Positions 17,905-32,981 of a DNA stretch of 64,000 nucleotides are shown here, piece after piece. The number at the start of each line of letters is the position of its first letter. Within the stretch, counting starts at the first letter, position 1. This DNA is from a virus (lineage: Duplodnaviria > Caudoviricetes), in IMG/VR virus record IMGVR_UViG_3300024229_000651. One strand, given 5' to 3'. The notes under the pieces were generated by a model, which worked only from the letters and a program-made list of their open reading frames with translations, was not told where the DNA came from and ran no database searches. Made by a program: the position numbers and the translations under genes.

Positions 17905-18091
17905 TTCGACTTTCTCCTTTCACTAAAATTCTAGGTTCGCTTGTACCAAATTGTCTGGCATAAACAGTTTTACCACCGTCTGGTGATTCGTAAATGTAAG
18001 GAACCTTTCCCTGAGTTCCGTATCTTCGTTGATAGTTTGGATTTTTCAACTTCTCAAACATCTCATCAATGTTACTGTCTAACTCGCCCAC
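17897..18091 (-). CDS. small hypothetical protein
   Basis: YIYESPDGGKTVYAR pattern; overlaps both neighbours. Confidence 0.5.
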   Translation of the reverse strand: MGELDSNIDEMFEKLKNPNYQRRYGTQGKVPYIYESPDGGKTVYARQFGTSEPRILVKGESRND

Positions 18092-19064
18092 CCAACATCT
18101 CCGAATACTGTGATGCGCTCTCGCCCATTCGCTGCAAGTTCCACTTACCGCAGAACTTCATAAAGTGCAGTCCGATAGTACCTACAGCATCCTTTGCTGA
18201 TTGTTCTTCTATAGCAAGTTTGCATCGTGTCTTTACTTCTTCTGGTTGCAACGTGAGGTCAATCAATATACGATTACGTTCGAAGTCATCCTTAACACGA
18301 TGTTCTACATCTTCGTGGTCTACCCAACGTTGTAACATAAAGTTATTGTAGTCAAACCCAGCATTCTTTCTATCTGCAAATGCCTCTGCAATACCAATCT
18401 TATTCTTACTGCCTTTCTTCCTAGCACCAGGGTACGCACTGAACACGTTGTCAGTCGCATCACCACGCACACACTTCTCAAACAGAATATACTCAGGATC
18501 GCCTAATACCTTGTCTTCTCCTGTCTTCTTGTCTTTAACTATCTTACCTGTTTTGAGATCTTTAAACCCTTCAAGACTAACAACTTGATCAGTAGTGCCG
18601 TTATACTGCGTTACATTGGGAGCAATGAGCTGATAAAAGTCGCTGTCAGTACTAATAATGTAATGATTATCGTCTGGCTTCTGTTGGATCCAAGATGCTA
18701 TCAAATCATCTGCTTCTGCTGTAGGACAGTGTAGCACGGAGCAATTAGTCCTGTCCTTAAAGAACTGTACCATATCGTCGTATGCTTCAAAGTACATTTC
18801 ATCGTCTTCCTGCTCGCGGACACTACGCTTGTCTGCAACTACTTTACGGTTTGCTTTGTAAGGTGTAAAAAAGTCCTTACGCCAGCTACGGCCTTCTAAA
18901 CATAGTACGATATGATCACCATCGAACTCTCTCCAACACTTGTTTAAACTGTTAAACATGATATGCATAGCCATGCCAATTTTAGTATCAATGTCCTGAC
19001 CACGCCCACCTACATGCTTTGCTCGCATAAACATGTTTAAGCCGTCAACTAACAAGTAATTCAT
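18072..19064 (-). CDS. rnh: T4-type RNase H / 5'-3' exonuclease
   Basis: LVDG, YKANR, EADD, STDSDFYQL, GDATDNV. Confidence 0.92.
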   Translation of the reverse strand: MNYLLVDGLNMFMRAKHVGGRGQDIDTKIGMAMHIMFNSLNKCWREFDGDHIVLCLEGRSWRKDFFTPYKANRKVVADKRSVREQEDDEMYFEAYDDMVQFFKDRTNCSVLHCPTAEADDLIASWIQQKPDDNHYIISTDSDFYQLIAPNVTQYNGTTDQVVSLEGFKDLKTGKIVKDKKTGEDKVLGDPEYILFEKCVRGDATDNVFSAYPGARKKGSKNKIGIAEAFADRKNAGFDYNNFMLQRWVDHEDVEHRVKDDFERNRILIDLTLQPEEVKTRCKLAIEEQSAKDAVGTIGLHFMKFCGKWNLQRMGESASQYSEMLGGRVRQ

Positions 19065-19816: not shown

Positions 19817-20704
19817 TTATTTTCCTATTGCGTTGCCATATATGTGTACGTGTACTCGGCTTGTGTAATTGTATCCACGTTGTATTGCTTCATCGGCTAT
19901 ACTTGCTTCTGTTTGTACCAAGCCTTCGAATGTACCGCCGACACCCATAATCCATACTGGGAAGTTACATCCTGCTTCTCTGAATAGTTTGGTATTTTCT
20001 TCTACTTCTCTCCAACTTTCATCAGTGCCATTTACTACAAATTTTAGTTGACCACGACTAGAGACTTCGGCATACTTACCTACCACTTCAGGCTGAATAG
20101 CCTTTTTAGATTTCTCACCAGCAGTGCTCCACAGTTTAGGACTGATACTCCAATACCATTCTTTGCCTTCACATCTAGTATAACAACGATTAATATAATC
20201 AGCAAACTCGTCAGTGATAGGTCTAGTACCATTTGTTTCTACAGTAACAAAGTTGGGCATATTATCTCTTTTAGCAAACTCGTCTAACACACCAATCATA
20301 CCTGGCTGTGTGTTCTTTAACATAGGCTCGCCACCTGTAAACACCATGTGCGTTTCTTGTAATGTTGCAGGATGAATAAAGCTACCGTGCGGCAGAAGGG
20401 CTGTAAGCTCGTCTACTGCATCCTTTACACTACGATCGGTAATGAGATGCTTAAACTTCTTACTCCACGTATACGAACTATCACATCCTTTGTCAAACAC
20501 AGGAAGATCAAACACATTATCGATGTGCGTGATATCAATTTTCTCATATGGTAAGTCGTATGTGCTAGGGTCAGTAGGATCTGTTTGACCAAAGCCATTG
20601 CATTGTAAATTACACAAAAAGAATCTCATCCACAGGCTAGGTATGCCTACATACTGCCCTTCTCCTTGTGCTGAATAAAATGTTTCGCTGTACTTTAAGT
20701 TCAT
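19817..20704 (-). CDS. queE: 7-carboxy-7-deazaguanine synthase (radical SAM)
   Basis: ETFYSAQGEG, CNLQC...CDS cluster, FTGGEP, VETNGT, ISPK, LKFVV, HVHIYGN. Confidence 0.88.
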   Translation of the reverse strand: MNLKYSETFYSAQGEGQYVGIPSLWMRFFLCNLQCNGFGQTDPTDPSTYDLPYEKIDITHIDNVFDLPVFDKGCDSSYTWSKKFKHLITDRSVKDAVDELTALLPHGSFIHPATLQETHMVFTGGEPMLKNTQPGMIGVLDEFAKRDNMPNFVTVETNGTRPITDEFADYINRCYTRCEGKEWYWSISPKLWSTAGEKSKKAIQPEVVGKYAEVSSRGQLKFVVNGTDESWREVEENTKLFREAGCNFPVWIMGVGGTFEGLVQTEASIADEAIQRGYNYTSRVHVHIYGNAIGK

Positions 20705-20967
20705 ATGTCTATGCCCTTTAACTTGAGATACACCATCTCATCTGGTGTAGCCCATTCTGTTCTGTTCAAGTGGTGTCTGGGGAATTGCGGCGGGTCTATT
20801 TTCATTTTCCTAGTTCTAGTGTAACCTACTCTAAACCAAATTAACGACTTATTAAAAGTAGACCTTCTTGGAAAAAGTACAAAGGTTTTCTTCCAATCAC
20901 TGTATATTAGGTTATCTGCAGAATAAATATAGTCTACAGCATTACCGCTCTCACCCGGAATGGGCAC
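20701..20967 (-). CDS. hypothetical protein
   Basis: 88 aa, translationally coupled to queE. Confidence 0.6.
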   Translation of the reverse strand: MPIPGESGNAVDYIYSADNLIYSDWKKTFVLFPRRSTFNKSLIWFRVGYTRTRKMKIDPPQFPRHHLNRTEWATPDEMVYLKLKGIDI

Positions 20968-21503
20968 TACATACCCATCCGTTCTTTTGTTTCTAAGTAT
21001 TCATCGTAGTCTAAGTCTTGGCGTGTGCGCTCAATATCAACTAACACATTGGGTATATTTCTTATTAGAGCACTGTTAACTAATGTTTCTATATCAGTTA
21101 GACTATGCTCTCCCCGTTCATGTAAGTCGATTATTCTTAGACAACAAACTCTCAATGCTAGGTTTACTAGTGTTGTAAAGGATTGTTTGTGCGGATAGTA
21201 CTGAAGCGAAGCTGCTAGTAGTTTCATATACGGAACTTGATGCAGCCTAGTAATTTCTATTACAACATCAAATTCATCTTTACCCACATTTATCAAGTCA
21301 AGTAACTGATCGTCTGGTGCTCCAGGTAACGTGGTATTTTCTGCATAAAAACTAATAGCATCCACAATGTCTTGCCTGTCCATCGATGGATAAAGTTCAT
21401 ACAATTTTTCAAATGTTGCCCCACTTGCAATCTTATCACAAATGCCATCGACTGGGACAAGCCCGTTTGTTACAACGAATGTGTTCTGTCTTTTCTCGAT
21501 CAT
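20967..21503 (-). CDS. DUF433-like N-terminal domain protein
   Basis: VPVDGICDKIASGATFEKLYELYPSMDRQDIVDAISFY pattern. Confidence 0.55.
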   Translation of the reverse strand: MIEKRQNTFVVTNGLVPVDGICDKIASGATFEKLYELYPSMDRQDIVDAISFYAENTTLPGAPDDQLLDLINVGKDEFDVVIEITRLHQVPYMKLLAASLQYYPHKQSFTTLVNLALRVCCLRIIDLHERGEHSLTDIETLVNSALIRNIPNVLVDIERTRQDLDYDEYLETKERMGM

Positions 21504-21513
21504 TGTTAGTGCC

Positions 21514-22191
21514 TTATTTAGATGAGTTTACAATGTTCATGAATTCAGCACGAACGTCTGGTTCGTTCTTAAAGCAACCTCCTAGCTTGCTAGTGATTGT
21601 TGAGGAGCCTGTGTCCTCGACACCTCGACTCTTAACGCAATAATGTTGTGCATCAACAATAACTCCAATATTGGGCGTATCTAATATATACGACAATGCA
21701 TGATAAACTTGTTCAGTTAATCTTTCTTGGATTTGTGGACGTTTAGCAAAATATTCAACAACTCTGTTAAGTTTACTAAGTCCTAGCACTCTTTCATTTG
21801 GGATGTAGCCCACTGTAGCAACACCATCAATTACAACAAAGTGATGCTCGCAGTTTGATTGAACATTAATGTTACGCTCAATAACCATTTCGTCGTACTT
21901 CATTTTATTGTCTACTGCTGTACACTTTGGGAATGCTTCGTAGTCAAGTCCCCAAAAGATTTCGTTAACATACATCTTTGCCACACGCTTAGGTGTGTCC
22001 ATAAGACTGTCATCTGAAAGGTCTAGCCCCATGACGTTCATGATGTTTTTAAAGTGTTCTTCGATTAGATCAATTTTATCTGTACGAGAAAACCCGTTGT
22101 TATCAACTGGTGTTTCAACACCCATCTTTACTAGATGTTCGTGTACTCTGCGACCCAGATCTGGGTCAGTTTTAGTCTTATTATAAGCCAT
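21514..22191 (-). CDS. folE: GTP cyclohydrolase I
   Basis: TPKRVAKM, CEHH, GLSKLNR, RPQIQERLT, HYCVKSRG. Confidence 0.96.
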   Translation of the reverse strand: MAYNKTKTDPDLGRRVHEHLVKMGVETPVDNNGFSRTDKIDLIEEHFKNIMNVMGLDLSDDSLMDTPKRVAKMYVNEIFWGLDYEAFPKCTAVDNKMKYDEMVIERNINVQSNCEHHFVVIDGVATVGYIPNERVLGLSKLNRVVEYFAKRPQIQERLTEQVYHALSYILDTPNIGVIVDAQHYCVKSRGVEDTGSSTITSKLGGCFKNEPDVRAEFMNIVNSSK

Positions 22192-22262
22192 TCGATTCTC
22201 CTTCCTAACGCGGATTTAAATTTTTGAATTGTGTTGCTACCTTTGTGTAGCATTTATATTTA

Positions 22263-22469
22263 TCAACTGTCAAGTTTGATAATACCATTTTCCCAATTTT
22301 CTACTACATCCTCAGCATAGTGGATGCTTTTATTGAGCAATGTACGTGTCTCTTTCATAACACCATCCTCGAACAAGTCGACGACATAAGTCATGTCAGG
22401 GCCTTTAGTACCATCGCTGATATATTTAACTTTTCTTATTTTTGCAATACGTTCCATTACTTCCACCAT
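22263..22469 (-). CDS. hypothetical protein
   Basis: 68 aa between the PRTase and folE. Confidence 0.55.
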   Translation of the reverse strand: MVEVMERIAKIRKVKYISDGTKGPDMTYVVDLFEDGVMKETRTLLNKSIHYAEDVVENWENGIIKLDS

Positions 22470-22921
22470 TCCTCATAAGGAAAAACGATCCAATTGTTAT
22501 CCTCAAGTTCAATTTCTTCTGCATAATAGTCTACACCATCGAACGAACTTGATTGCTTGTTAAATATTGTAGCATATCTGATGTCAGAATACAAGCTATT
22601 ATTTTTATTAATAGCTTCAGATATACCAGACAGAGTGCTACCAGTGTCGTTGATATCATCGATAACAAGAATATCTGTGTTACTATGATTGCTTAAAATA
22701 CTTTGTAGTTGTTCAGCATCTTCGAAATCACCATCCCTTGTTTGCCAGTTGAATCCTTCGAACGGAACGTTTAAATAGTGACTGAGCATTACACCGGGTA
22801 TATATCCTCCTCTACCAGGCCCAATTACTACACCTGGATTAAACGAGTCCAAGGAAATCATACGCACCAAATCAGCAAGGTATGATTCTAAATCATCCCA
22901 TGTATAAAATTTCTTCATCAC
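22457..22921 (-). CDS. purine (xanthine-guanine-type) phosphoribosyltransferase
   Basis: YTWDD, VLVIDDINDTGST PRPP loop, WIVFPYE. Confidence 0.88.
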   Translation of the reverse strand: MMKKFYTWDDLESYLADLVRMISLDSFNPGVVIGPGRGGYIPGVMLSHYLNVPFEGFNWQTRDGDFEDAEQLQSILSNHSNTDILVIDDINDTGSTLSGISEAINKNNSLYSDIRYATIFNKQSSSFDGVDYYAEEIELEDNNWIVFPYEEWWK

Positions 22922-23901
22922 GTTTTCCTTTTAGATTTTGCAGATTGCCATTTGATCTCATCTCTGATAATATCTTCAATAGACATAGCAGGACTCCATC
23001 CTAATACTTTAGCGGCTTTGCTATTATCTGCAAAAGTACCTACCATATCACCCGGTCGCCTAGGCGTAATAGATGTATCAATCTCTGTGTCTAGTTCTTT
23101 TGCAACCAGATCAACAAGTTGTTTTGTGCTGACAGGATTGCTACTACCAATGTTTAATGTAGTTGAATCGCCACCGTCACTCAAGTAGTTAACAGCGGAT
23201 TGGAACGCTCTTGCAACGTCACTCACGTGGGTATAGTCACGAATGTTTGTTCCGTCTACAGTGTCGTAGTCGTCGCCGTTAATCTCAAACCCTTCGTTCT
23301 CCATAGCTTTTCGTGTAAGTATGGGAAGAACATGAACAAGCGGATCTTTTTGATAACCGTATCGGCCATTAGCACTGCCTGCAACATTAAACAGTCTCAA
23401 GTTAACAAAGTTAAAATCGTTTGCCGTTGCATAGTCTTGGATAATTTGCTCACAGATCATTTTTGATCTGCCATATGGATTGATTGGACTTAGGCTATCG
23501 TCTTCTTTGAACATACCATTGTCTTGTTGGCTTGTACCGTATACACTACTACTTGATGCAAATATAAAGTTCTTTACACCAGCGTCAGCGCAGTTATTAA
23601 GCAAGTTGATTGTTTGATAGACATTTTGTGTGTACGTGGTCGCCGGGTCCTTCATACTAGCTGGTACACTGTTATTTGCCGCTATATGAATAACTACATC
23701 AGGTTTAAGTAACTTTAATATACCGTTAACTTGTTTGTTATCAACCTCAAACGGGTATTGGGTTACACCTTCTAATGTGCGTTTGCTTTTATCAATGTTA
23801 ACAACATTGTATCCGCTGTCTGATAACAATCGACAAACGTTACTTCCAATAAAGCCGCTGCCTCCCGTTACAACCACAGATTTTTCTGTTATGTTATTCA
23901 C
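22918..23901 (-). CDS. galE: NAD-dependent nucleotide-sugar epimerase (GalE-like)
   Basis: VTGGSGFIG, SSSSVYG, YGRSK, RDYTHV; GTG start at 23901 with GAGGA RBS. Confidence 0.88.
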   Translation of the reverse strand: MNNITEKSVVVTGGSGFIGSNVCRLLSDSGYNVVNIDKSKRTLEGVTQYPFEVDNKQVNGILKLLKPDVVIHIAANNSVPASMKDPATTYTQNVYQTINLLNNCADAGVKNFIFASSSSVYGTSQQDNGMFKEDDSLSPINPYGRSKMICEQIIQDYATANDFNFVNLRLFNVAGSANGRYGYQKDPLVHVLPILTRKAMENEGFEINGDDYDTVDGTNIRDYTHVSDVARAFQSAVNYLSDGGDSTTLNIGSSNPVSTKQLVDLVAKELDTEIDTSITPRRPGDMVGTFADNSKAAKVLGWSPAMSIEDIIRDEIKWQSAKSKRKT

Positions 23902-24952
23902 TTGTGTGTCCTCTAATAATTGTGTACAGTTTCTCACCACTGAAAAACTCTTTTCTTAAATTGCTTTCCAAATCTTGTATTCGATTATCTCGTTCGTAAC
24001 TAGGAGTAAGAACTGCTTGTATGTATTCAACTATCTTATCCTTGTGGTTCAAATAGCTGTCCCAATCCTCTGTCCATGCACTTGGATATTTAAAGTAGTC
24101 ATCGTACATCTCTGTATAACTAAGTCTGTCTGGAACAATAGGTTGAGCACCTACAATGGCTCCTTCGTAACAACTGATGCCTAATGTTTCTTGTGTGTTA
24201 GCACTGAACACTGCTTTGGCTTTACCAAGTAGATCATGATACTCGTCTTTGGTTAGCGTTTGTTCCTGACAAACAATAAAGTCTGTGTCTGGAAAGCTGT
24301 TAGCTAAGTCTTTGAAAATATCAACTTGTTTTTCAGGTGCGACCCGATGAGGGAATAGTACAATATCTTCTTTGTCGGCAGAAGTATGTGTGTCTAATAA
24401 TCCCTTCATGTACTCCATTGGCCAACCCACTTTGTGAATTTTATTTAAATCCACATCTGGGAATGCCTCTAAAAATAATTCTATATGAAAGTCGGTAGCA
24501 TAAAAATTATCATCGAAGGCATTGAACATTGCAAGTTCTGTGTGTCTGCACCATGGAGCGTTACCTATCAGCCTTCCTAAAAAGTCTGCTGGGTCATAAC
24601 TACCGGCATGCCACATGCCTCCGATTTTAATTTTTACATCAAGTAATTCAGCCATATACTTTAATTGAAGAACTGTAGGGTTCCAAGCATCAGTGTATAA
24701 GAAGTAGTCTCCGTCTTGTACAGTACCGTCTGCAAACATCTGGCTAATTGTTTTCAGTTGCTCGCTTTTCCAGTAATTAGTTCCACTGAAGTTTAAAAAT
24801 GCTCCCGGAGTTGTGTCTTGAGGAGCATCAGCTGGTCCCTCTATAACATGTACCTCTAGCCCAGCATCACGCATTTGCTGAGGCAAATGCTTTTTCCACT
24901 GCGCAGTGTATCTTGTTTCTACAGGTTCTATTTCAACTAAGTATACTTTCAT
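23894..24952 (-). CDS. GT-B (GT4-like) glycosyltransferase
   Basis: FPHRVAPEK and QETLGISCYEG (E-x7-E) motifs. Confidence 0.75.
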   Translation of the reverse strand: MKVYLVEIEPVETRYTAQWKKHLPQQMRDAGLEVHVIEGPADAPQDTTPGAFLNFSGTNYWKSEQLKTISQMFADGTVQDGDYFLYTDAWNPTVLQLKYMAELLDVKIKIGGMWHAGSYDPADFLGRLIGNAPWCRHTELAMFNAFDDNFYATDFHIELFLEAFPDVDLNKIHKVGWPMEYMKGLLDTHTSADKEDIVLFPHRVAPEKQVDIFKDLANSFPDTDFIVCQEQTLTKDEYHDLLGKAKAVFSANTQETLGISCYEGAIVGAQPIVPDRLSYTEMYDDYFKYPSAWTEDWDSYLNHKDKIVEYIQAVLTPSYERDNRIQDLESNLRKEFFSGEKLYTIIRGHTSE

Positions 24953-24954
24953 AA

Positions 24955-25137
24955 TTACATGCTGTTCTTTTTATCTTGAATTTCTGCACGTCTAGTCTTA
25001 GCTAGTTTACCTAAATCGCCTAATGCTTTACGAGCACGAGCTGATGCAGCTTTCACACCCTTTGATTCGAATTTTTCACTCTCCTCTAAGTATGTTTCCA
25101 TTGCCGCTTTGATTTGTAAATGTGTTTCTGAACTCAT
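24955..25137 (-). CDS. histone H1-like Hc1-family DNA-binding protein
   Basis: KGVKAASARARKALGDLGKLAKTRRAEIQ signature. Confidence 0.8.
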   Translation of the reverse strand: MSSETHLQIKAAMETYLEESEKFESKGVKAASARARKALGDLGKLAKTRRAEIQDKKNSM

Positions 25138-25153
25138 AGTTCTCTCCTTAGTG

Positions 25154-26188
25154 TTATTCCGTATTTGATACGGATTCGATTATGGCACCATAATTTTTTT
25201 GATATTCCATTAGGGTGTCGTAATTATGTTGTAATATTTCTGCAGTTTCTAGTGAATACATATCGATATGCATTTGTTTAATGGACAGTCCTTTTAGCTG
25301 TTCCAGCACATGATTCATTCTCTTGTCGTCATCGAGCGAATCGTATCTTTCGTCAAATATGTGTGGGAAGGTTTTAAATCCCATTTTGCGTAACTCTTTC
25401 AATGAATTTTTATTACCGATAAGTAAGAAAGGTCTCTTATTATATATGCTTCGGAATATCTTCTCACTGAAAAATACTGGTTCCCAATGCGCTAATTGTG
25501 CACAATGAAACTGATCATGGAAATAAAATGTTTCAGGGACCAAGTCGAAGTAAGTTCTATCGTAAATATCAAAAAACTCTTTCCCTGGATCTTGAAAGGT
25601 TCTGCGCTCCATTACAGTTTTGTGTCCCTCAGCAGACTTTGGAACTTTGTCGTGAAACCATGGATGTAACTCTTCCTTAAAGTCGTTTATCCATGTCCAT
25701 TCGCAACTGTCAATGAGATTATTTTCGTAGATATAATTCATTGCTTCGATACGATGGTCTCTTGGCTCTCCGCACAAGTATGTGAATAACTTTTCTCTGT
25801 GGGTATTGTTTCGTAATACCTCATATTGTGCATGGTAATCAGTTGTGTTTGTGACAAGTACGGATGCCCAAATTGGATAGTATGCTACAGTTAGTCTACT
25901 ACTTGGGTTGTTTTCTTTGCACCACATATCGTATAGATCTTGGACATTAACATTACCCCACCATAGTGTTACTAAACTGGGGTCAACGGATGCAATACTG
26001 CACTGCTCGTATATAACAGTAAACAAGTCCATGCCACGAGAAGTGTGAGTAGATTGCCTATCCGGATCTATAAAAAGCCCGCCCTCAGTGATTAAGTCCA
26101 TTGAGATAGTCTCGCCAGCTGGCATCAGGGCTAACTCTTCGTGCAAAGTTTCGCCTGGGTAACCTGAATACAGCTGGATATGATTCAT
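25154..26188 (-). CDS. putative glycosyltransferase-like protein
   Basis: YFDLVPET...FFSEK...RPF C-terminal block resembles GT10-type motifs. Confidence 0.4.
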   Translation of the reverse strand: MNHIQLYSGYPGETLHEELALMPAGETISMDLITEGGLFIDPDRQSTHTSRGMDLFTVIYEQCSIASVDPSLVTLWWGNVNVQDLYDMWCKENNPSSRLTVAYYPIWASVLVTNTTDYHAQYEVLRNNTHREKLFTYLCGEPRDHRIEAMNYIYENNLIDSCEWTWINDFKEELHPWFHDKVPKSAEGHKTVMERRTFQDPGKEFFDIYDRTYFDLVPETFYFHDQFHCAQLAHWEPVFFSEKIFRSIYNKRPFLLIGNKNSLKELRKMGFKTFPHIFDERYDSLDDDKRMNHVLEQLKGLSIKQMHIDMYSLETAEILQHNYDTLMEYQKNYGAIIESVSNTE

Positions 26189-26556
26189 TCCTGATACTCT
26201 ATTTCACAACCATTTTCGTTGTCTTCTGCAACAGATATCTTTAGCCAGCGGTCTGGGTACTTGGCTTGTACATGCTCCGCTAAATCATCTGCGATCATTT
26301 CACAGCTCTTGTAATCCAACTGCAATGTGTCTTGTGTGTACAGTCTTTCCATCCAGCGTTTAAACTGAATAAACTCCACGTCTCTGTCATTGTGGAACAC
26401 TTCAAGCCAAACTTTAAAATGGAATATATGTCGGTGGGGATATCCTAAAAAAGATACGTCATCCCAATCGCCTGTTGCTAGATTGGGATCAGTATCAGCG
26501 CCTGGATACTTGTGTACACCTTCCTTTTGAAACGTTACCCAAATACTTCTCATCAA
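26185..26556 (-). CDS. QueD-like T-fold protein (DpdL candidate)
   Basis: LGYPHRHIF, RDVEFI, SCEMIA, EDNENG. Confidence 0.65.
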   Translation of the reverse strand: MMRSIWVTFQKEGVHKYPGADTDPNLATGDWDDVSFLGYPHRHIFHFKVWLEVFHNDRDVEFIQFKRWMERLYTQDTLQLDYKSCEMIADDLAEHVQAKYPDRWLKISVAEDNENGCEIEYQE

Positions 26557-26626
26557 TCGTCCTCAGTTTTTATTACTATCCAAACTACTAGTATACTAAA
26601 CAATATTCCTGCAAATGCATATTCCA

Positions 26627-27103
26627 TTACGCATCACTACCAAACGTATCGATATACTCTGCTAGGTCTTTGATGTCATCCTCTGACAACATACCTGCTT
26701 GCCCCCACATAAGTGCACTCTGTGCCCCTACTGTTTCTCCTGCTTTGTAACTACGTAAACGATCTACGATATATTCCACAGTCTGTCCTGCAAGCATGGG
26801 ACCAACTCCGCCTTGCCCACGTGCTCCGTGACAAGCACCACAAGAAGCATATTTTGCTTGCCCGGGCATAACATCAGCAGATGCTAATTGCACTCCGGCG
26901 CTTACAACATAGGCACTTGCTGACCCAGTAAAGTTTGCAGGTTCAGCAGATACGTGAACTACACCGAAGCCTTTGATTCTTTCTTCGATGCCTGCTAGTT
27001 GTTCTTTTGTAGTATCAGTACGTTTTGCTGCGAACACAGCTTGCTCGCCACAGCCGCCAATGAACAGTGTTGCTGCTAAGATTGTTGTTGTTAATAGTTT
27101 CAT
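26627..27103 (-). CDS. class I c-type cytochrome (c553/c4-like) with export signal
   Basis: CGACH heme motif, GPMLAGQ, distal Met (ALM); N-terminal signal/lipobox-like LFIGGC. Confidence 0.88.
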   Translation of the reverse strand: MKLLTTTILAATLFIGGCGEQAVFAAKRTDTTKEQLAGIEERIKGFGVVHVSAEPANFTGSASAYVVSAGVQLASADVMPGQAKYASCGACHGARGQGGVGPMLAGQTVEYIVDRLRSYKAGETVGAQSALMWGQAGMLSEDDIKDLAEYIDTFGSDA

Positions 27104-27333
27104 GTGTTATCTCCGTCAAAATATTTAACATCACTTTTATTAAAAGGTTTATTATCGTCGCCTTTGACCAAAGAAACTAGTCGGGCGATCTCGTCTTTAA
27201 CCTTGAGTTTGGTTTTCTTAAGAAAGTTTACTCGCATATCACCTTCATAGTTTTCACTTGCAAGCTCAATTTGACTATCAAGTCTTTTGTGTTTTGTTTT
27301 AAGAACTTCAATTCTATCTTTCATTGTAGTCAT
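27100..27333 (-). CDS. DUF465/YdcH-like protein
   Basis: LKTKHKRLDSQI...LKKTKLKVKDEI. Confidence 0.65.
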   Translation of the reverse strand: MTTMKDRIEVLKTKHKRLDSQIELASENYEGDMRVNFLKKTKLKVKDEIARLVSLVKGDDNKPFNKSDVKYFDGDNT

Positions 27334-27511
27334 CTTCTTCTCCTCCTAAGCACTTTCTGTCTTCAGGTTCAATTGGATTATCGTAATAATCGTGCGTTCC
27401 TGCTCTGTACCTTGCTTTCTTTTCGCTGACTAGAACACAACTCATATATGCCATCCATCCCATGCCCGCAAGAAAAATCAAACTGAATATAGTTTGTATT
27501 ACTTCAATCAT
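27314..27511 (-). CDS. small membrane protein
   Basis: N-terminal TM helix. Confidence 0.55.
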   Translation of the reverse strand: MIEVIQTIFSLIFLAGMGWMAYMSCVLVSEKKARYRAGTHDYYDNPIEPEDRKCLGGEEDDYNER

Positions 27512-27629
27512 CGGATAGCTCTGCCGTTGTGTTATAAAGACCTTTCATACTTTCGATAACTGCAATAATCTCTTCGACTTCGTCAGCATCATCTTTAGTA
27601 TCAATTTCTATTTCAATTTTAATTTTCAT
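27504..27629 (-). CDS. 41-aa acidic protein (not in ORF track)
   Basis: manual translation MKIKIEIEIDTKDDADEVEE...; TTGACT-17-TATAAT at 27636-27664 directly upstream. Confidence 0.5.
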   Translation of the reverse strand: MKIKIEIEIDTKDDADEVEEIIAVIESMKGLYNTTAELSDD

Positions 27630-27653
27630 AATAATATTATACTGTATATAGGA

Positions 27654-28100
27654 TCAATAGTCAACCATTTTATTTGGCGTATCACCCCTTTGCTCCCTCA
27701 AATTCACCTTTTCCAAACTAAGTTTATCCTTCAAACTCAATACATATGCACTCGCAGCAAGTATAGCAATACCTGTTGTTTCATAAAGTATAAATTCAGG
27801 CTCAGTTCCTTTAGTTGTTAATACAATCATTCTAGTCAGTGCTGTGATTGCAATAATGATAGGTAGTGTGACTGGTATTCTATGATCTTTATAAAATGCA
27901 CCAACCATACCTAATATTTCTGCGTAAATAAACAATAGGAATAAGTCGGCCAATGCCATCTTTCCGCTTGTTGTGAACATATGCAAAATATCAAACCCAG
28001 CTGCCCATACTGTACCTGCTACAATAAACAATAGCAATGCTTTTTCCATATGCATAATAATTCTATGGACAGAGTTCTTATATTTTCTACTGAATGACAT
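27654..28100 (-). CDS. psiE: phosphate-starvation-inducible PsiE-family membrane protein
   Basis: LADLFLLFIYAEI...IPVTLPIIIAITALTR. Confidence 0.85.
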   Translation of the reverse strand: MSFSRKYKNSVHRIIMHMEKALLLFIVAGTVWAAGFDILHMFTTSGKMALADLFLLFIYAEILGMVGAFYKDHRIPVTLPIIIAITALTRMIVLTTKGTEPEFILYETTGIAILAASAYVLSLKDKLSLEKVNLREQRGDTPNKMVDY

Positions 28101-28630
28101 TACTCTATTACCTCGTCGCCCACATATTCAGTCCAATCGGTGTACTTGGATCTGTCTTTGAGGTCGTGTAAACTGTGGCACCAAACACCTGTGTTTGTTC
28201 CTTTGAATGATTTATCATCTAGTTTGAGTGTTGTATTGTAGTTAAACAATTTGATATTCGGAAGTCGAACAGCAATCATAGGGATAAATTTATTGTAGTC
28301 AGTCCAGCCGTTATCGTGAAACCATTCGTGATTAGCATAGGAGCTGTCGAAATCAAGTGTGACCCATACATCAGCGTCTAACAGTTGCGTAATAATGTAA
28401 TCCCATTCTGCCCACGAGTTCGAATCATCTTGTGGCTGAAATGAGTCAGCACATCCTAAGTACACATGATCAATTTTGTTGTTTAGACATCTTGCTAAAA
28501 TCTCCTTAACATTTTGTCTACCAATAACAAACAACGTTTTTTTGCCATACAGAGGAGTATGCTCAACTTCAGTACCAATAAAGAACTTTGGATCGTCTCC
28601 AAAGTTGGTCCTACCTTCTACTGTTGCCAT
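28100..28630 (-). CDS. hypothetical protein in the dpdA operon
   Basis: 176 aa; overlaps both neighbours; GTEVEHTP...TLFV and GVWCH motifs. Confidence 0.7.
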   Translation of the reverse strand: MATVEGRTNFGDDPKFFIGTEVEHTPLYGKKTLFVIGRQNVKEILARCLNNKIDHVYLGCADSFQPQDDSNSWAEWDYIITQLLDADVWVTLDFDSSYANHEWFHDNGWTDYNKFIPMIAVRLPNIKLFNYNTTLKLDDKSFKGTNTGVWCHSLHDLKDRSKYTDWTEYVGDEVIE

Positions 28631-29508
28631 GTTAAATATGTCCTGTTCTTGTCTATGCTTGTTGTTCTGTTGTTAAATGCAGTACCGGCTTCTGTAGTAG
28701 GATACTCGGCGCCCCACATATCGTCAACGTTAATGATATTCTTTTGTACTAATAAGTTTGCCTTAACCATACTGTTATAAAACGTTTTTGTTCTCGGACT
28801 AGGAAAATCCGTTCTAATCGATTTCCATAGAAACGGAGCAAAGTCTACATCACCGTGCTTCTCTGCACACATTAAATAGTGACCATTGTTATTAAGTATG
28901 TCGGCAGTAAAATACTTTATATGACTCGACAAGTCGACAACTACATCATACTGATCAGATAGATTATGTTCTCGCCTAGCACCTTTATCATCCCACCAGT
29001 CAGAGTATGCTTTACCTGTTACTGTAACATTACGTAATCTGCTTTTGTTATTGTACTCTAACACTTCATATATTACTCTTGCTAAGAAGCCTGTGCCTAT
29101 CATTAGCAATGACCTATTACCTAATTTACCAATTATGTCTGCAATGTTTACAGCACATGCCACAGGCTCTAGTATATATTTAGGCATTGCCGCTGGAACA
29201 ACAACAAATTCTCCGTCTCTAACATTATAGTAGTCTGCAAATGCAGGCTCTCCTCTAGTGGCTACAATGTCGCCTACCTTTGCAGTACTTACATTTTTGC
29301 CAACAGACATAACTTCGCCTAGCCCTTCATGCCCGTGCATGTTATCAGGCAACATGTTCATGTCACCATTAAACATGGCTACGTCACTACTGCATATACC
29401 TGTGTATATAGACTTAACTACTATTTGGTCTTCGGTGTGTTCAGGTTTATCCCACTCGATATGAGATATTGTCTTATCGCTGTTCACTTTAATTAAATTA
29501 CATTTCAT
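28618..29508 (-). CDS. zinc-binding (MDR) dehydrogenase-like protein
   Basis: GICSSD, GHEGLGEV, GDIV, EPVAC. Confidence 0.85.
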   Translation of the reverse strand: MKCNLIKVNSDKTISHIEWDKPEHTEDQIVVKSIYTGICSSDVAMFNGDMNMLPDNMHGHEGLGEVMSVGKNVSTAKVGDIVATRGEPAFADYYNVRDGEFVVVPAAMPKYILEPVACAVNIADIIGKLGNRSLLMIGTGFLARVIYEVLEYNNKSRLRNVTVTGKAYSDWWDDKGARREHNLSDQYDVVVDLSSHIKYFTADILNNNGHYLMCAEKHGDVDFAPFLWKSIRTDFPSPRTKTFYNSMVKANLLVQKNIINVDDMWGAEYPTTEAGTAFNNRTTSIDKNRTYLTWQQ

Positions 29509-30379
29509 TTTCGTGGTACCTTTCTAGCTGACTATGTATCCATAGATCCATATCAATGTGGTCTTGGTAACTATCTTTCTCTGAACGTGCTATCATTCTT
29601 CCGTATGCGTCATTAGGGCATAACCCAAACCGCCATTCGTATGTGCTGTCTTCTGTGTATACTTTTACACTCTGATCATCAATGCCAGTCTTCCATCCTG
29701 CTTTTATTGTAACAGGCACATTGTTCCAAGTCCAATGCTCTTCGGCATAGTCACACACATCATATACACCTTCTGCATTTACATTACCGTAGTTTGTTGA
29801 TAATAATTCTTCTAGTTCCCACTGTCTTGTTTTAGTATGGCTCACAAAAGACATCTCTGTTAACGGAACAATTTTACTTAGGTTACAATATAAGTGTGGG
29901 AACAAATCTAAAGCCACTCCACCCCATGCAAGTTTTTTATTTGTGAACCAACTACCCGGACTAGGAACACGATTTGCATTCAACCATGATACTTCAATCT
30001 TGGTTGGTCTTATACTCTTATTCAACAGATCGTCTAGTGCGCCGTATGATGTTCGATATAGATTATTTTTACACATGATGTACTTTGTATCAGTGTATCT
30101 ATTCTGCAGGCGTGTTAATGCTTCCACACTGGGTAAACCAGGCTTTTCAATAAACACAGTTTTGCAATACATACCAACTTTTTCGGCAATAGGAAGGTGT
30201 GTAAAATTAGGCGTACAAATAACAGCAACATCAAATTCTCCACGAACATCGTCGACGTTGTTATAATTTGCTGTAACAACTTGCTGATCCACAGTTGTGA
30301 CTGTGTACCCTAACTGAGTTAACTCAGGTAAGTAAACGTTAGACCCTATACCCCCTAGACCAACAAGTAATGCTCTCAT
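29498..30379 (-). CDS. Gfo/Idh/MocA-family oxidoreductase
   Basis: VGLGGIG, ICTPNFTH, EKP, GGVALDLFPH. Confidence 0.85.
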   Translation of the reverse strand: MRALLVGLGGIGSNVYLPELTQLGYTVTTVDQQVVTANYNNVDDVRGEFDVAVICTPNFTHLPIAEKVGMYCKTVFIEKPGLPSVEALTRLQNRYTDTKYIMCKNNLYRTSYGALDDLLNKSIRPTKIEVSWLNANRVPSPGSWFTNKKLAWGGVALDLFPHLYCNLSKIVPLTEMSFVSHTKTRQWELEELLSTNYGNVNAEGVYDVCDYAEEHWTWNNVPVTIKAGWKTGIDDQSVKVYTEDSTYEWRFGLCPNDAYGRMIARSEKDSYQDHIDMDLWIHSQLERYHENEM

Positions 30380-31911
30380 AGTTCTCCTACTAGCTCTCCG
30401 AGTGCCTCTTCTTGAATAGCATCAAACTCTCCTTCGACTTGTTGCTCTACTTCCTCATCGAAGAACATACTAGCAGCACTAGTCTTAAATGCAGTATCAT
30501 GATCTTTGTGTTTGTTATTGCTAACGTCATTTAGGAATTCATGCGCATCATCTAACAATTGGTGAGGATTGTCGCTTTGGAATAACTCTTCAACAAACGT
30601 GTTAAACATCAGTAAGTTTCTAGGAGTGTATAAACTCTCTTGATTGAGTTTCTTACCCTTCTTCTGCCAGCTTCTCCAATCCAACTTGTAGTTTTCAAAC
30701 TCAATAGTTGCTAGACTATTTGCTTCCTGTACTGCTCTAATATGCATGTAAACATTGTGTGCCATCAGCATACCATACGTAAAACTATCCCAAGAAGTTT
30801 TACCTTCTTTGTTGATCTTGTTTAACATACCGGGAGCATACCAATTAACATCACCAGTTACAAGCCTACTACCAATCTCACTCTCCCACGGGAAAGGATT
30901 AGCAGACAAGTTACCAGGACTAAAGTGTGAGTTCGCTTTATTGTCGAAGCACTTCTCCATTATGTAACTCATTTGTTCACTGGTAATTTTATTACGTGTG
31001 TATACTAATCCATTAGCACTACTGATATATGGACTAGCACAATCAAAACTAACTGTGATGTTTGGATTAACATGCTCTCTGAGTTGTCGTTGCACACTTG
31101 TAAGCATAACTGCCCACTCTAGTTTACTTGTACCCAAGAAGTGAATCCAATCTCGATCCTGTAGTTTTTCATCATCACGTAAAGTAATGATACGTTTCAG
31201 TGCCATGTGCATGTCACGGATATTATTACCACCCATGCCCCAGCCTTCTGTGTCGTAGTCCTTAACTTTTTGATACCATTCTTCTGCATCTTCCCAATAG
31301 GTTCCTTGCAGTACATTCAAGAACTTTGTCTTGCCTTGTCTATGATCCATAAACCAATCTAAGTTGTATGCAGTACACTTCAAGCACTCATCAAAGTTCT
31401 GTAGTCCAGTCTTCTCTCTAAAGCCCGGCTTACATGCCCAGCTAGGAACATCAAACGTCATACTCCAGTCTGCTGTGTGTTCTAGCCAGTTAAGGATCTT
31501 GCCCCTAACTTTGTCAGCATCGCCTTTGTATCCAACATCGCCAGGCTTCTCAAAGAAGTTTTCCCAGTCAAACTTAATAACACCTTTACCAATCTGGAAA
31601 CCACCTGAATCCCCTACGATAGTTGTGTTAGCTCTGTCTCTATGTTGTATGATGTGTTCCATTACCTTACTCTTCTCTATGTCCAAGTAAGCATGTCCAG
31701 CACTATACAACCCTTTGTTATAGTAGTAGTAACCCTTCTCTTTGTCCAAGAAGTTCATGCCCTCAAAGCCATGTTCGAAGCCTTTGGGTACTCGACCGTC
31801 CGGAATATATCCATCCACACTGTTGCATCTGCCTAGTAGCTCTGTCATAAAGCCACTAATAGCTGGGAGGAAAGTTGCGTAATCGCTATGCTTGGAGGAT
31901 AGATCTCTCAT
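30376..31911 (-). CDS. dpdA: TGT-fold transglycosylase, probable DNA 7-deazaguanine insertase
   Basis: DSGGFQ, MTFDVP, NVLQG, GMGG, IHFLG, SFDCAS; queE/folE nearby. Confidence 0.8.
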   Translation of the reverse strand: MRDLSSKHSDYATFLPAISGFMTELLGRCNSVDGYIPDGRVPKGFEHGFEGMNFLDKEKGYYYYNKGLYSAGHAYLDIEKSKVMEHIIQHRDRANTTIVGDSGGFQIGKGVIKFDWENFFEKPGDVGYKGDADKVRGKILNWLEHTADWSMTFDVPSWACKPGFREKTGLQNFDECLKCTAYNLDWFMDHRQGKTKFLNVLQGTYWEDAEEWYQKVKDYDTEGWGMGGNNIRDMHMALKRIITLRDDEKLQDRDWIHFLGTSKLEWAVMLTSVQRQLREHVNPNITVSFDCASPYISSANGLVYTRNKITSEQMSYIMEKCFDNKANSHFSPGNLSANPFPWESEIGSRLVTGDVNWYAPGMLNKINKEGKTSWDSFTYGMLMAHNVYMHIRAVQEANSLATIEFENYKLDWRSWQKKGKKLNQESLYTPRNLLMFNTFVEELFQSDNPHQLLDDAHEFLNDVSNNKHKDHDTAFKTSAASMFFDEEVEQQVEGEFDAIQEEALGELVGEL

Positions 31912-31912
31912 C

Positions 31913-32680
31913 TTAACTCCTAGCCGGTAGTAAGTATGTGTAGTTGCCTAAGCCACTGTCTACAGTTAGTTGAAGTAAGCCTTGATTATTAAAGCTCATA
32001 CTAACATTTGAGCTATCACCTAATCGAAGAATCTTTAATACAACTTCAAGAGGCCAATTCCATTCTGTAGTGATGTCTCCACTAACATTGTTATCAATAA
32101 GAATCTTAGTTCGGTTGCTACCCAATGTGCCTACGTAGAAATATAATGCACCGTTCTCAGTTTTTGGCATAAAGTTTGCTTCATAAGAACCTAATACTCC
32201 AGTGAAGTAGCCCAAATCTTGTAGCATCTTCTTAGTAGGAGAAATAGTTACATCAAATGCTGCACCTTTAAACTTAATGTCTTTTAACTGCTGATTGATA
32301 ACATCAGCTAACATAAATCTGTAATGAGCATCCGTACCTTCTGTAGTCTTAAATTCTACTTCAACAGGTACTTCTTCATCGTTTCGAGTTTGCTTTAGTA
32401 CTTGTATAGTTGCACTCTCATCGTCAAAGCCAGGATACTGTAAGTAACCCTTCAGTACGTTCATAGTACTTAGACCCACAGTTGAACCTGCAAAGTCTAC
32501 AACAGGGTTAGCTGTCTCGCCCTTAAAGATAACTGTTTTGTCTGCGTCTACAGTTTCTACTACAGTTTCTGATGTAGTACCTTTGATCTTTACCATTTCG
32601 AATATACCCAGGTCGTGAGTGTGTCTCACAACATCTTTCAGCACATCTTTAATATAATTGTTACTCATAGTTTCCTCCAA
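31913..32680 (-). CDS. probable DNA polymerase sliding clamp (gp45-like)
   Basis: 255 aa, adjacent to polB, alpha/beta pattern; called from context and size. Confidence 0.65.
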   Translation of the reverse strand: MEETMSNNYIKDVLKDVVRHTHDLGIFEMVKIKGTTSETVVETVDADKTVIFKGETANPVVDFAGSTVGLSTMNVLKGYLQYPGFDDESATIQVLKQTRNDEEVPVEVEFKTTEGTDAHYRFMLADVINQQLKDIKFKGAAFDVTISPTKKMLQDLGYFTGVLGSYEANFMPKTENGALYFYVGTLGSNRTKILIDNNVSGDITTEWNWPLEVVLKILRLGDSSNVSMSFNNQGLLQLTVDSGLGNYTYLLPARS

Positions 32681-32723: not shown

Positions 32724-32981
32724 TCAAGCTGATTCCGAGTCTTTTCTTCGATTTCTTTTTTCAAAATATAATCTCATGTATGTTTTTCTTGCTATTGCTA
32801 CTACTGTGAATATGATTGTAAAGAAAATGGTTGTTAATAGCACAGACATTTCGTATGTTCTTGCAATAACAATCAGTCCCATGTTTAACGGAAAGTTAAT
32901 TAATAATGCAATGCCAGTGTCTGCTACTGCCTCTTTAAACGCCGCAAATTTAGAATTCAAAGAATGCCTCCAGTGTTTCAC
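32724..32981 (+). CDS. small membrane protein
   Basis: two hydrophobic helices; fills the gap on the opposite strand. Confidence 0.55.

Follow-up and report, generated by a model that had tools for sequence, protein, structure and literature searches.

A GT-B glycosyltransferase conserved beside DpdL and DpdA3-type transglycosylases in two phage lineages, and a possible glycosylated deazaguanine in phage DNA

Introduction

To our knowledge, eight 7-deazaguanine derivatives occur in phage DNA, none of them sugar-bearing, and all DNA glycosylation known to us is on hydroxymethyl-pyrimidines. Here we describe a gene block that sets a glycosyltransferase (GT) among predicted genes for a 7-deazaguanine modification of DNA. 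It lies in a 64,000-nucleotide stretch of DNA from a giant marine phage, hereafter the window, which comprises bases 25549-89548 of the 339,794-bp IMG/VR virus record IMGVR_UViG_3300024229_000651 (estimated completeness 91%).

In the DNA of phage phiST, deoxyguanosine (dG) is fully replaced by 2'-deoxy-7-deazaguanine (dDG) (Hutinet et al., NAR 2023, PMC10516641). The phiST cluster encodes QueD, QueE, FolE, a MazG-like protein, DpdL, an AAA-like 159-aa protein and a 259-aa DpdA3, with no GT among them. The window resembles it in having the same precursor genes, no QueC, a DpdL with the motif LxxxHRHxF and a DpdA3-type enzyme, all beside polymerase genes. The DpdA3 of phiST is short, however, and its cluster is without the GT, a 176-aa partner protein and a phosphoribosyltransferase (PRTase), whereas the transglycosylase of the window has 511 residues, is recognized by profile-profile comparison only, and shares its module with a GT4-type enzyme and sugar-supply genes that are fixed there. 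The fixing of a GT and sugar-supply genes beside DpdL and DpdA3 is what is new relative to the known dDG system, and it is not described in the literature that we searched: full-text searches found no paper on a GT in a deazaguanine DNA pathway, and the string 'glycosyl' is absent from the main text of PMC10516641.

The nearest cultured relatives of the virus are the PA5oct-like Pseudomonas jumbo phages. At EST35_0316-0322, PA5oct (Wroclawvirus) has the order polB, clamp-like gene, 540-aa protein resembling tRNA-guanine transglycosylase (TGT), 353-aa GT, 125-aa DpdL, PRTase and QueE, with identities to the window of 38% (TGT-like protein), 46% (GT), 60% (DpdL) and 36% (QueE). It differs in lacking GalE, the Gfo-MDR oxidoreductase pair and the marine inserts described below, and its homologue of the 176-aa protein is about 28 kb away. 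Both records inspected label the module genes of PA5oct 'hypothetical'. The DNA of this phage, a therapeutic candidate, is resistant to several restriction enzymes whose sites contain G, indicating modified G, and its QueE and 6-pyruvoyltetrahydropterin synthase (PTPS) were noted in the same study, which reported no transglycosylase or final base (PMC12191111).

The alpha- and beta-glucosyltransferases of phage T4 offer a more distant parallel, as GT-B enzymes encoded among replication genes that move a sugar from a UDP-sugar onto a non-canonical base, the sugar varying by lineage. Here, by contrast, the base would be a purine analogue without a hydroxymethyl handle; the GT is GT4-like, the T4 enzymes are not among its top structural matches, and its activity on DNA is a prediction. 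We read the block as a module, linked to replication, for modifying the guanine of the phage's own DNA by the known dDG route with a glycosyltransferase added, and we put the probability of this reading at about 0.5.

A glycosyltransferase accompanies DpdL in two phage lineages

All module genes lie on the minus strand, bounded on one side by a DNA polymerase and a clamp-like gene and on the other by a RNaseH/FEN-like gene (18072-19064). The genes central to the comparison, including one short open reading frame (ORF), are the following.

32950-35643, minus strand: family-B DNA polymerase (polB), homologous to PA5oct polB
Between polB and the clamp-like gene, minus strand: 85-aa ORF
31913-32680, minus strand: sliding-clamp-like protein, 255 aa, 31% identical (E 2e-41) to the annotated Phosso sliding clamp
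30376-31911, minus strand: divergent DpdA3-like DNA transglycosylase (TGT superfamily), 511 aa, homologue of PA5oct EST35_0316
28100-28630, minus strand: conserved 176-aa protein, a core partner in the jumbo clade, PA5oct and ACP17
26185-26556, minus strand: DpdL, a Cys-less QueD paralogue and proposed decarboxylase of 7-carboxy-7-deazaguanine (CDG), 123 aa, assigned by motif, phrog_17812 and phiST homology
23894-24952, minus strand: GT4-type (retaining-like) GT-B glycosyltransferase, 352 aa, assigned by AlphaFold2 model, Foldseek and motifs

Two samples of viral contigs were compared with the window. The jumbo sample holds 80 contigs with a gene for a relative of the 511-aa protein, and the T4-like sample holds 80 contigs that encode a long DpdA3, with UvsW, UvsY and gp46/47 as neighbours; counts of DpdL and GT are limited to loci with enough sequence (63 jumbo and 72 T4-like informative loci). 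The jumbo loci have the order polB, clamp-like gene, TGT-like gene, optional Gfo-MDR pair, 176-aa gene, DpdL, GT, optional GalE or UDP-sugar dehydrogenase, FolE, PRTase, QueE and replication genes, and polB and the clamp-like gene were found in 75-79 of the 80. The T4-like order is QueE, optional PRTase, FolE, 3'-5' exonuclease-like gene, optional second GT, DpdA3, optional EndoV-like gene, DpdL, GT, optional GalE and QueD. With the same order in 80 + 80 independent viral contigs, the gene arrangement is far beyond chance.

DpdL and the GT stand together in 61/63 jumbo loci. The other two have DpdL only, and another ORF with a weak Glyco_trans_1_2 match occupies the position of the GT. Among the T4-like loci the two genes are together in 68/72, with neither present in three and the GT only in one, so that both lineages combined yield GT and DpdL in 129 of 135 informative loci. 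By comparative genomics, the DpdA3/DpdL module of two unrelated phage lineages almost always includes a GT-B enzyme. Between the window and the T4-like contig L097, FolE is 80%, DpdL 64% and GT 48% identical while the transglycosylases are only remotely related, suggesting that the accessory genes move between phage families as a set.

The 12-kb block itself had no match among GenBank phages by megablast. The DpdL and GT module is abundant, occurring in hundreds of viral contigs, and is present in the cultured phages ACP17, BUDD, BCSR5, Phosso, BUCT-ZZ01 and PA5oct, which makes it directly testable; hosts of cultured carriers include Pseudomonas, Acidovorax, Xanthomonas, Burkholderia and Sinorhizobium.

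A preliminary description of the window had pointed to a co-oriented 12-kb block beside the clamp gene and polB, and its named genes do lie there on the minus strand, between 19817 and 31911. The gene content it listed stands, but the block is not continuous, being broken by Hc1, cytochrome c, DUF465, PsiE and DUF433 inserts. Its 'QueD/DpdL-like' T-fold protein proved to be DpdL and not QueD, which sits outside the block (genome 151014-151394). Of its two GT-like ORFs, that at 23894-24952 is the GT-B enzyme, but that at 25154-26188 has a weak GT10-like lead only and drops out as a module member, being absent from all 80 related jumbo loci.

The glycosyltransferase resembles GT4 enzymes in fold and donor site

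The AlphaFold2 model of the GT, built on an alignment of 28 homologues, has a mean predicted local distance difference test score (pLDDT) of 89.8 and a predicted template modelling score (pTM) of 0.87. A Foldseek search of PDB and Swiss-Prot with this model returned retaining GT-B enzymes of the GT4/GT5 type, namely glycogen synthase, GlgM, BshA, MshA, PimA/B and PglA at E ~1e-10 and template modelling (TM) scores of 0.6-0.7. BshA and MshA were the best structural matches (TM 0.65-0.70) and have in common with the GT the spacing of an Arg/Lys pair and the motif [E/D]x7E, but are only 12-17% identical to it in sequence. In both subtypes of the GT, R203, K208 and E263 do not vary, and E255 or Asp stands eight residues before E263. 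We take the Arg/Lys pair together with [E/D]x7E to be the donor-binding pattern of GT4 enzymes. The window GT scores 16.1 bits for Pfam Glycos_transf_1, below the cut-off of 26.4, and five homologues exceed it: BUDD (45.7 bits), BCSR5 (42), L099 (32.3), L079 (27.0) and BUCT-ZZ01 (26.5). The N-terminal acceptor domain had no sequence-family match, and the GT profile found only noise among PDB sequences.

A partial parallel is the tRNA-queuosine mannosyltransferase QTMAN/GTDC1, a GT4-class GT-B protein that glycosylates a 7-deazaguanine-derived base within nucleic acid. Its acceptor differs, in that queuosine has a cyclopentenediol and dDG does not, and a closer kinship found no support: its N-terminal domain QTMAN_N (PF12038) was not matched in the window genome at E <= 10, and a Pfam scan of 28 + 20 module GTs gave no match to it. 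A thymidylate-synthase-like gene, which could supply hydroxymethylcytosine or hydroxymethyluracil as an alternative acceptor, is absent.

These relationships bear on what the GT would act upon. The DNA might carry plain dDG or its 7-carboxy counterpart dCDG, with the GT acting instead on a pathway protein or on a free intermediate (a deazapurine or pterin), whose solubility, sequestration or export the sugar would serve. That would agree with its best structural matches, BshA, MshA, GlgM and LmbT, being small-molecule GT4 enzymes, with the lack of an obvious acceptor group on 7-deazaguanine, and with phiST achieving full dDG replacement without a GT. However, the GT is kept beside DpdA3 and DpdL inside the replication blocks of very different phages, and the variable donor-supply genes and the second GT of some loci suggest a diversifying surface mark, as on DNA, and not housekeeping. 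We regard a GT of this kind, working off the DNA, as unlikely though to be taken seriously.

A remote DpdA3-type transglycosylase and its 176-aa partner

The 511-aa protein belongs to a family of >7000 homologues, none of them annotated. It has no Pfam, PHROG or NCBIfam match and its profile found only noise among PDB sequences; in particular, TGT (PF01702) and DpdA (PF23859) were not matched in the protein, in 22 homologues or in a six-frame search of the genome. Its alignment (A2, 22-24 homologues) has three invariant motifs, GDSGGFQ (D101), HxLGT (H257-G260) and FDCASP (D290). We take the Asp of DSGG[FL]Q and a second Asp after an [LM]G[VT][GS] strand to be the TGT catalytic motifs, on the pattern of the Zymomonas mobilis enzyme. 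When aligned by hhalign with a long DpdA3 family (A6), A2 matched at 95.3% probability (E 2e-8, 239 columns), with its motifs in register with DSGGLQ, HLLGVGS and SYDS of the long DpdA3. The A6 alignment was built around a 424-aa protein of ACP17, taken as DpdA3 from its neighbours and from one JGI annotation as 'tRNA-guanine family transglycosylase'; 26 long-DpdA3 homologues likewise gave no TGT or DpdA match in a Pfam scan. Look-alikes of the 511-aa protein in the ESM Atlas carry TGT and DpdA domains. By homology, then, the protein is predicted to be a DpdA3-type transglycosylase, remote in sequence but with both catalytic Asp motifs intact. No invariant Cys cluster is present in A2, and the canonical CxCxxC...H zinc site therefore seems to be absent. 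A predicted complex of this protein with the GT scored 0.00, which counts neither for nor against binding.

The 176-aa gene was found in 72/80 jumbo loci, mostly directly after the transglycosylase, and also in the ACP17 cluster. Its protein was modelled by AlphaFold2 at pLDDT 87.7, and the model had no trustworthy fold match in Foldseek PDB, VIA-wide or AFDB cluster searches: the best matches were at noise level (VIA Z 6.3), three QueE structures reached Z 5.7, and AFDB returned only its own unnamed cluster. Nor is it homologous to the small proteins at the same position in Phosso and BUCT-ZZ01 or to the TGT-like protein, and profiles of the 176-aa protein and of DpdL found only noise among PDB sequences. 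A lead from ESM Atlas features towards a GH-A barrel was rejected, as too few features were in common.

DpdL and the supply of the deazaguanine precursor

The invariant residues of DpdL in 27 sequences are F36, L37, H41, R42, H43 and F45 (F-L-x3-H-R-H-x-F). This pattern contains LxxxHRHxF, the published DpdL signature that replaces CxxxHGH of QueD (PMC10516641). The protein matched phiST CGPG_00067 by tblastn (E 4e-7, 32.5% identity over 98% of the query), and it co-occurs, as expected of DpdL, with FolE, QueD, QueE and a DpdA-like gene in a genome without QueC. Expression of dpdL and dpdA of ACP17 or phiST in Escherichia coli gave no dDG, and the authors suggest that further enzymes may be needed (PMC10516641).

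The genes that would supply the precursor are the following.

21514-22191, minus strand: GTP cyclohydrolase I (FolE), 225 aa, PF01227, E 2.8e-61
19817-20704, minus strand: QueE-like radical S-adenosylmethionine (SAM) enzyme of the CDG synthase type, 295 aa, phrog_2076, E 1.7e-50
22457-22921, minus strand: 6-oxopurine (xanthine/guanine-type) PRTase, 154 aa, PF00156, phrog_8995
Genome 151014-151394 (L003 1495-1944), about 104 kb from the module: QueD, the sole QueD/PTPS of the genome

The window FolE is 80% identical to that of L097 (5778-6452), a T4-like marine contig. The two genomes are otherwise far less alike, as would be expected if module genes had recently passed from one phage family to another. 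The QueE-like protein matched the PHROG 'QueE-like' family, with a best NCBIfam QueE equivalog score of 35 bits against a cut-off of 240 bits, and is 36% identical to a PA5oct protein annotated as 7-carboxy-7-deazaguanine synthase. Its sequence has an N-terminal SAQGEG, C-x3-C and a third Cys about 38 residues on, an unusual spacing with a long insert. QueD reads C-x3-H-G-Y in place of CxxxHGH, and its gene adjoins a paralogue of the 344-aa ORF described below. FolE, QueD and the QueE-like enzyme would, by homology, make up the route from GTP to CDG. QueC was not found in the genome search beyond a single weak match (L004 922-1866, genome ~113.4-114.4 kb), which we rejected as a NadE-like PP-loop protein with the NadE-type SGGVDS motif; without QueC the route stops short of preQ0. 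Next to the NadE-like gene, L004 has a B12-binding-like radical SAM N-terminus.

The nearest solved structures to the PRTase are purine phosphoribosyltransferases and E. coli XGPRT, and the gene is present in 31/80 jumbo and 26/80 T4-like loci as well as in PA5oct and BUCT-ZZ01. Its recurrence in the module raises a different order of events, in which the PRTase would make a 7-deazaguanine ribonucleotide, in the manner of toyocamycin or tubercidin, which host kinases and ribonucleotide reductase would turn into a dNTP for incorporation by polB, leaving the TGT-like protein some other role. The GMP-reductase-like gene, HIT hydrolase and YhhQ-type transporter that some loci add would fit such an entry before replication. 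On the other hand, no module gene is more conserved than that of the transglycosylase, in which both catalytic Asp motifs are retained, every phage known to have deazaguanine DNA encodes DpdA (PMC10516641), and the PRTase is absent from many loci and more simply explained by guanine salvage. We hold such an entry to be very improbable.

Sugar-supply genes recur as exchangeable cassettes

Three genes of the window could prepare a sugar or its acceptor.

22918-23940, minus strand: UDP-glucose 4-epimerase (GalE), 340 aa, TIGR01179 equivalog, 279.2 bits against a 262.3-bit cut-off
29498-30379, minus strand: Gfo/Idh/MocA oxidoreductase (Gfo), 293 aa, PF01408, E 3.4e-8
28618-29508, minus strand: protein like the Zn-dependent medium-chain dehydrogenases/reductases (MDR), 296 aa, PF08240 ADH_N, E 2.9e-11, matching in the GroES-like N-domain only

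Among solved structures, Gfo comes nearest to WbpB, a UDP-sugar 3-dehydrogenase (weak, E 2.6e-4), and PDB relatives of the MDR protein are polyol, ketose and threonine dehydrogenases. GalE directly follows the GT in 9-10 jumbo loci, and in nine others its place after the GT is held by a UDP-glucose/GDP-mannose dehydrogenase, four of these with a cytidylyltransferase-like gene. A type-2 GT is followed by GalE in 31/35 T4-like loci, and a second GT-like protein (447 aa, L096 3373-4716, Glyco_trans_1_4, E 3e-5) accompanies type-2 GT and GalE in 33. The Gfo-MDR genes were found in 8/75 informative jumbo loci, always paired and always between the transglycosylase and the 176-aa gene. On the transglycosylase tree of the jumbo loci there are at least 11 changes of the sugar-supply state and six of the Gfo-MDR state, suggesting repeated gain or loss of the cassettes, always at the same site. 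The preliminary description had tied the GT, Gfo and MDR genes alike to dpdA; across gene neighbourhoods the tie is borne out for the GT, by its company with DpdL, but weakened for the Gfo-MDR pair.

GalE, Gfo, MDR and the 344-aa ORF could instead be passengers of a variable island for glycosylation of the virion or host envelope, with the conserved GT alone belonging to the module. The same interval does hold clear inserts (cytochrome c, PsiE, DUF465 and DUF433, each in 0-1/80 loci), and paralogues of the 344-aa ORF and another epimerase of the short-chain dehydrogenase/reductase (SDR) type lie elsewhere in the genome. The recurrent placement argues against this: GalE occupies the identical place after the GT in jumbo and T4-like loci alike, Gfo-MDR keeps to its own site, and both cassettes underwent several independent state changes. 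We hold this explanation to be improbable.

The oxidoreductases also permit a pathway apart from DNA modification, which would lead to a pterin glycoside (tetrahydrobiopterin-glycoside or cyanopterin type) as an auxiliary metabolite. Gfo and MDR would serve in it as ketoreductases, alongside FolE, the T-fold protein, the GT and GalE. Two reductases and a GT fit that chemistry on paper, and pteridine GTs use UDP-Glc, UDP-Xyl, UDP-Gal or UDP-GlcNAc on pterins derived from FolE and PTPS (PMC5683033). Against this, DpdL is without the catalytic Cys of PTPS and QueD, about 90% of the loci that keep DpdL and GT do so without Gfo-MDR, QueE and a DNA transglycosylase are always in the module, and the cultured carriers infect hosts such as those named above. 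The pteridine enzyme CtPGT is described as GT-1/AviGT-4-like (PMC5683033), whereas the top structural matches of the window GT are GT4/GT5, a separation that is one of description. Of the explanations considered here we find this one the least probable.

A proposed route to glycosylated deazaguanine in DNA

Under the dDG-plus-glycosyltransferase reading, the steps up to insertion follow the phiST case: DpdL would convert CDG to 7-deazaguanine, and the transglycosylase would exchange 7-deazaguanine for G in DNA after replication. The GT would then add a sugar to the deazaguanine base in DNA, or would have done so on the free base before insertion. GalE would set the donor, making the sugar here probably galactose or another GalE-derived hexose, and Gfo-MDR may tailor the sugar or prepare the acceptor. 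Excised guanine could be recycled by the PRTase to GMP and GTP, feeding FolE. The benefit would be protection from restriction and other DNA-targeting defences. As a speculation, the sugar may be attached by attack of the electron-rich C7 that DpdL exposes, and exposure of C7 by decarboxylation would explain the joint inheritance of DpdL and the GT.

Glycosylated deazaguanine in DNA is, we consider, well motivated by the gene content. The glycosylated or otherwise elaborated deazaguanine foreseen in the preliminary description gains from the tie of the GT and UDP-sugar supply genes to the module, but loses the Gfo-MDR pair as a general component and the second GT-like ORF as a member. We count in favour of the reading that phiST, with plain dDG, has DpdL and a short DpdA3 and no GT, and likewise that PA5oct DNA is resistant at G-containing sites and that reconstitution with ACP17 dpdL and dpdA failed, both of which a further sugar on the base could explain.

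Several points weigh against it. The closest structural relatives of the GT (BshA, MshA, GlgM, LmbT) act on small molecules and not on nucleic acids; 7-deazaguanine is without a hydroxyl, and we know of no precedent for its glycosylation. Gfo-MDR is confined to about 10% of related loci, and other sugar-tailoring genes elsewhere in the genome, including the SDR epimerase, could be the ones that GalE and Gfo-MDR serve. For every GT-carrying phage the glycosylated base is a prediction from gene content. The decarboxylase activity of DpdL, finally, is a proposal for which the heterologous tests failed in PMC10516641.

More tentatively, and at somewhat less than even odds, glycosylated 7-deazaguanine may be present in the DNA of a large and widespread group that takes in PA5oct-like and marine jumbo phages, T4-like cyanophages, other marine myoviruses, ACP17, BUDD and BCSR5. 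The sugar would be set by lineage-specific cassettes (GalE, UDP-sugar dehydrogenase, second GT, Gfo-MDR), of which Gfo-MDR possibly creates or tailors the attachment site. If so, this would be the first sugar-bearing purine analogue known in any genome and a new class of DNA hypermodification. It would bear on evasion of restriction and CRISPR, on modification-sensing defences (END nucleases, DNA glycosylases), on nanopore base-calling of environmental phage DNA and on DNA-labelling enzymes.

Other genes in and around the module

The remaining genes of the interval are an Hc1-like gene and genes that do not belong to the conserved module.

25154-26188, minus strand: lineage-specific 344-aa ORF, possibly GT10-like
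24955-25137, minus strand: Hc1-like histone-like protein, 60 aa, PF07432, E 3.6e-12
26627-28100, minus strand: local insert with PsiE (27654-28100), a 65-aa ORF, DUF465 (27100-27333) and cytochrome c (26627-27103), by Pfam
20967-21503, minus strand: DUF433 protein, PF04255, a local gene
20701-20967, minus strand: 88-aa ORF, also local

The 344-aa ORF has no Pfam or PHROG match. Its family, known from phages only, is represented in the genome by at least three paralogues (the others at L003 169-1401 and L004 2394-3176), which have in common the C-terminal motif EK…PF…GF…F. The ESM Atlas gave weak GT10 leads, and the same fold is fused to methyltransferase or NDP-sugar epimerase/dehydratase domains in phage proteins. 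We infer that this is probably a new GT-like family.

DUF433 was found in 1/80 jumbo loci and the 88-aa ORF in none. Cytochrome c and PsiE were likewise in 0/80 and DUF465 in 1/80. Scans of the region for sigma-70 promoters and terminators gave no excess over shuffled controls. The best sigma-70-like match (TTGACT-17-TATAAT, 11/12, at 27664-27636) is placed where the PsiE ORF starts and lies upstream of the genes for the 65-aa protein, DUF465 and cytochrome c. The insert from PsiE to cytochrome c may be a moron that brings its own promoter. It is unusual for a phage to encode a secreted cytochrome of the c type.

Other lineages add genes of their own. Some jumbo modules (L056, L066, L074-L076; e.g. 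L076 17341-18411, L075 14558-15328) have a GMP-reductase/IMPDH-like gene and a YhhQ-type (Vut_1) 7-deazapurine transporter, and further extras are HIT hydrolases (16 loci), HhH-GPD glycosylase (six) and dCMP deaminase (five). The additional purine genes suggest lineage-specific handling of purine and deazapurine pools. In the T4-like sample, the 3'-5' exonuclease-like gene precedes DpdA3 in 61 loci, and a 190-aa protein with a weak EndoV-type (Pyr_excise) match (L096 8141-8713) is encoded between DpdA3 and DpdL in 22.

The Hc1-like gene, related to the chlamydial histone H1-like protein, recurs within the module in three jumbo loci (L005, L007 and L070) and six T4-like loci (e.g. L105-L109). 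It adjoins the GT in one lineage and stands between QueE and FolE in the other, and its product could be a DNA-binding partner of the modification machinery.

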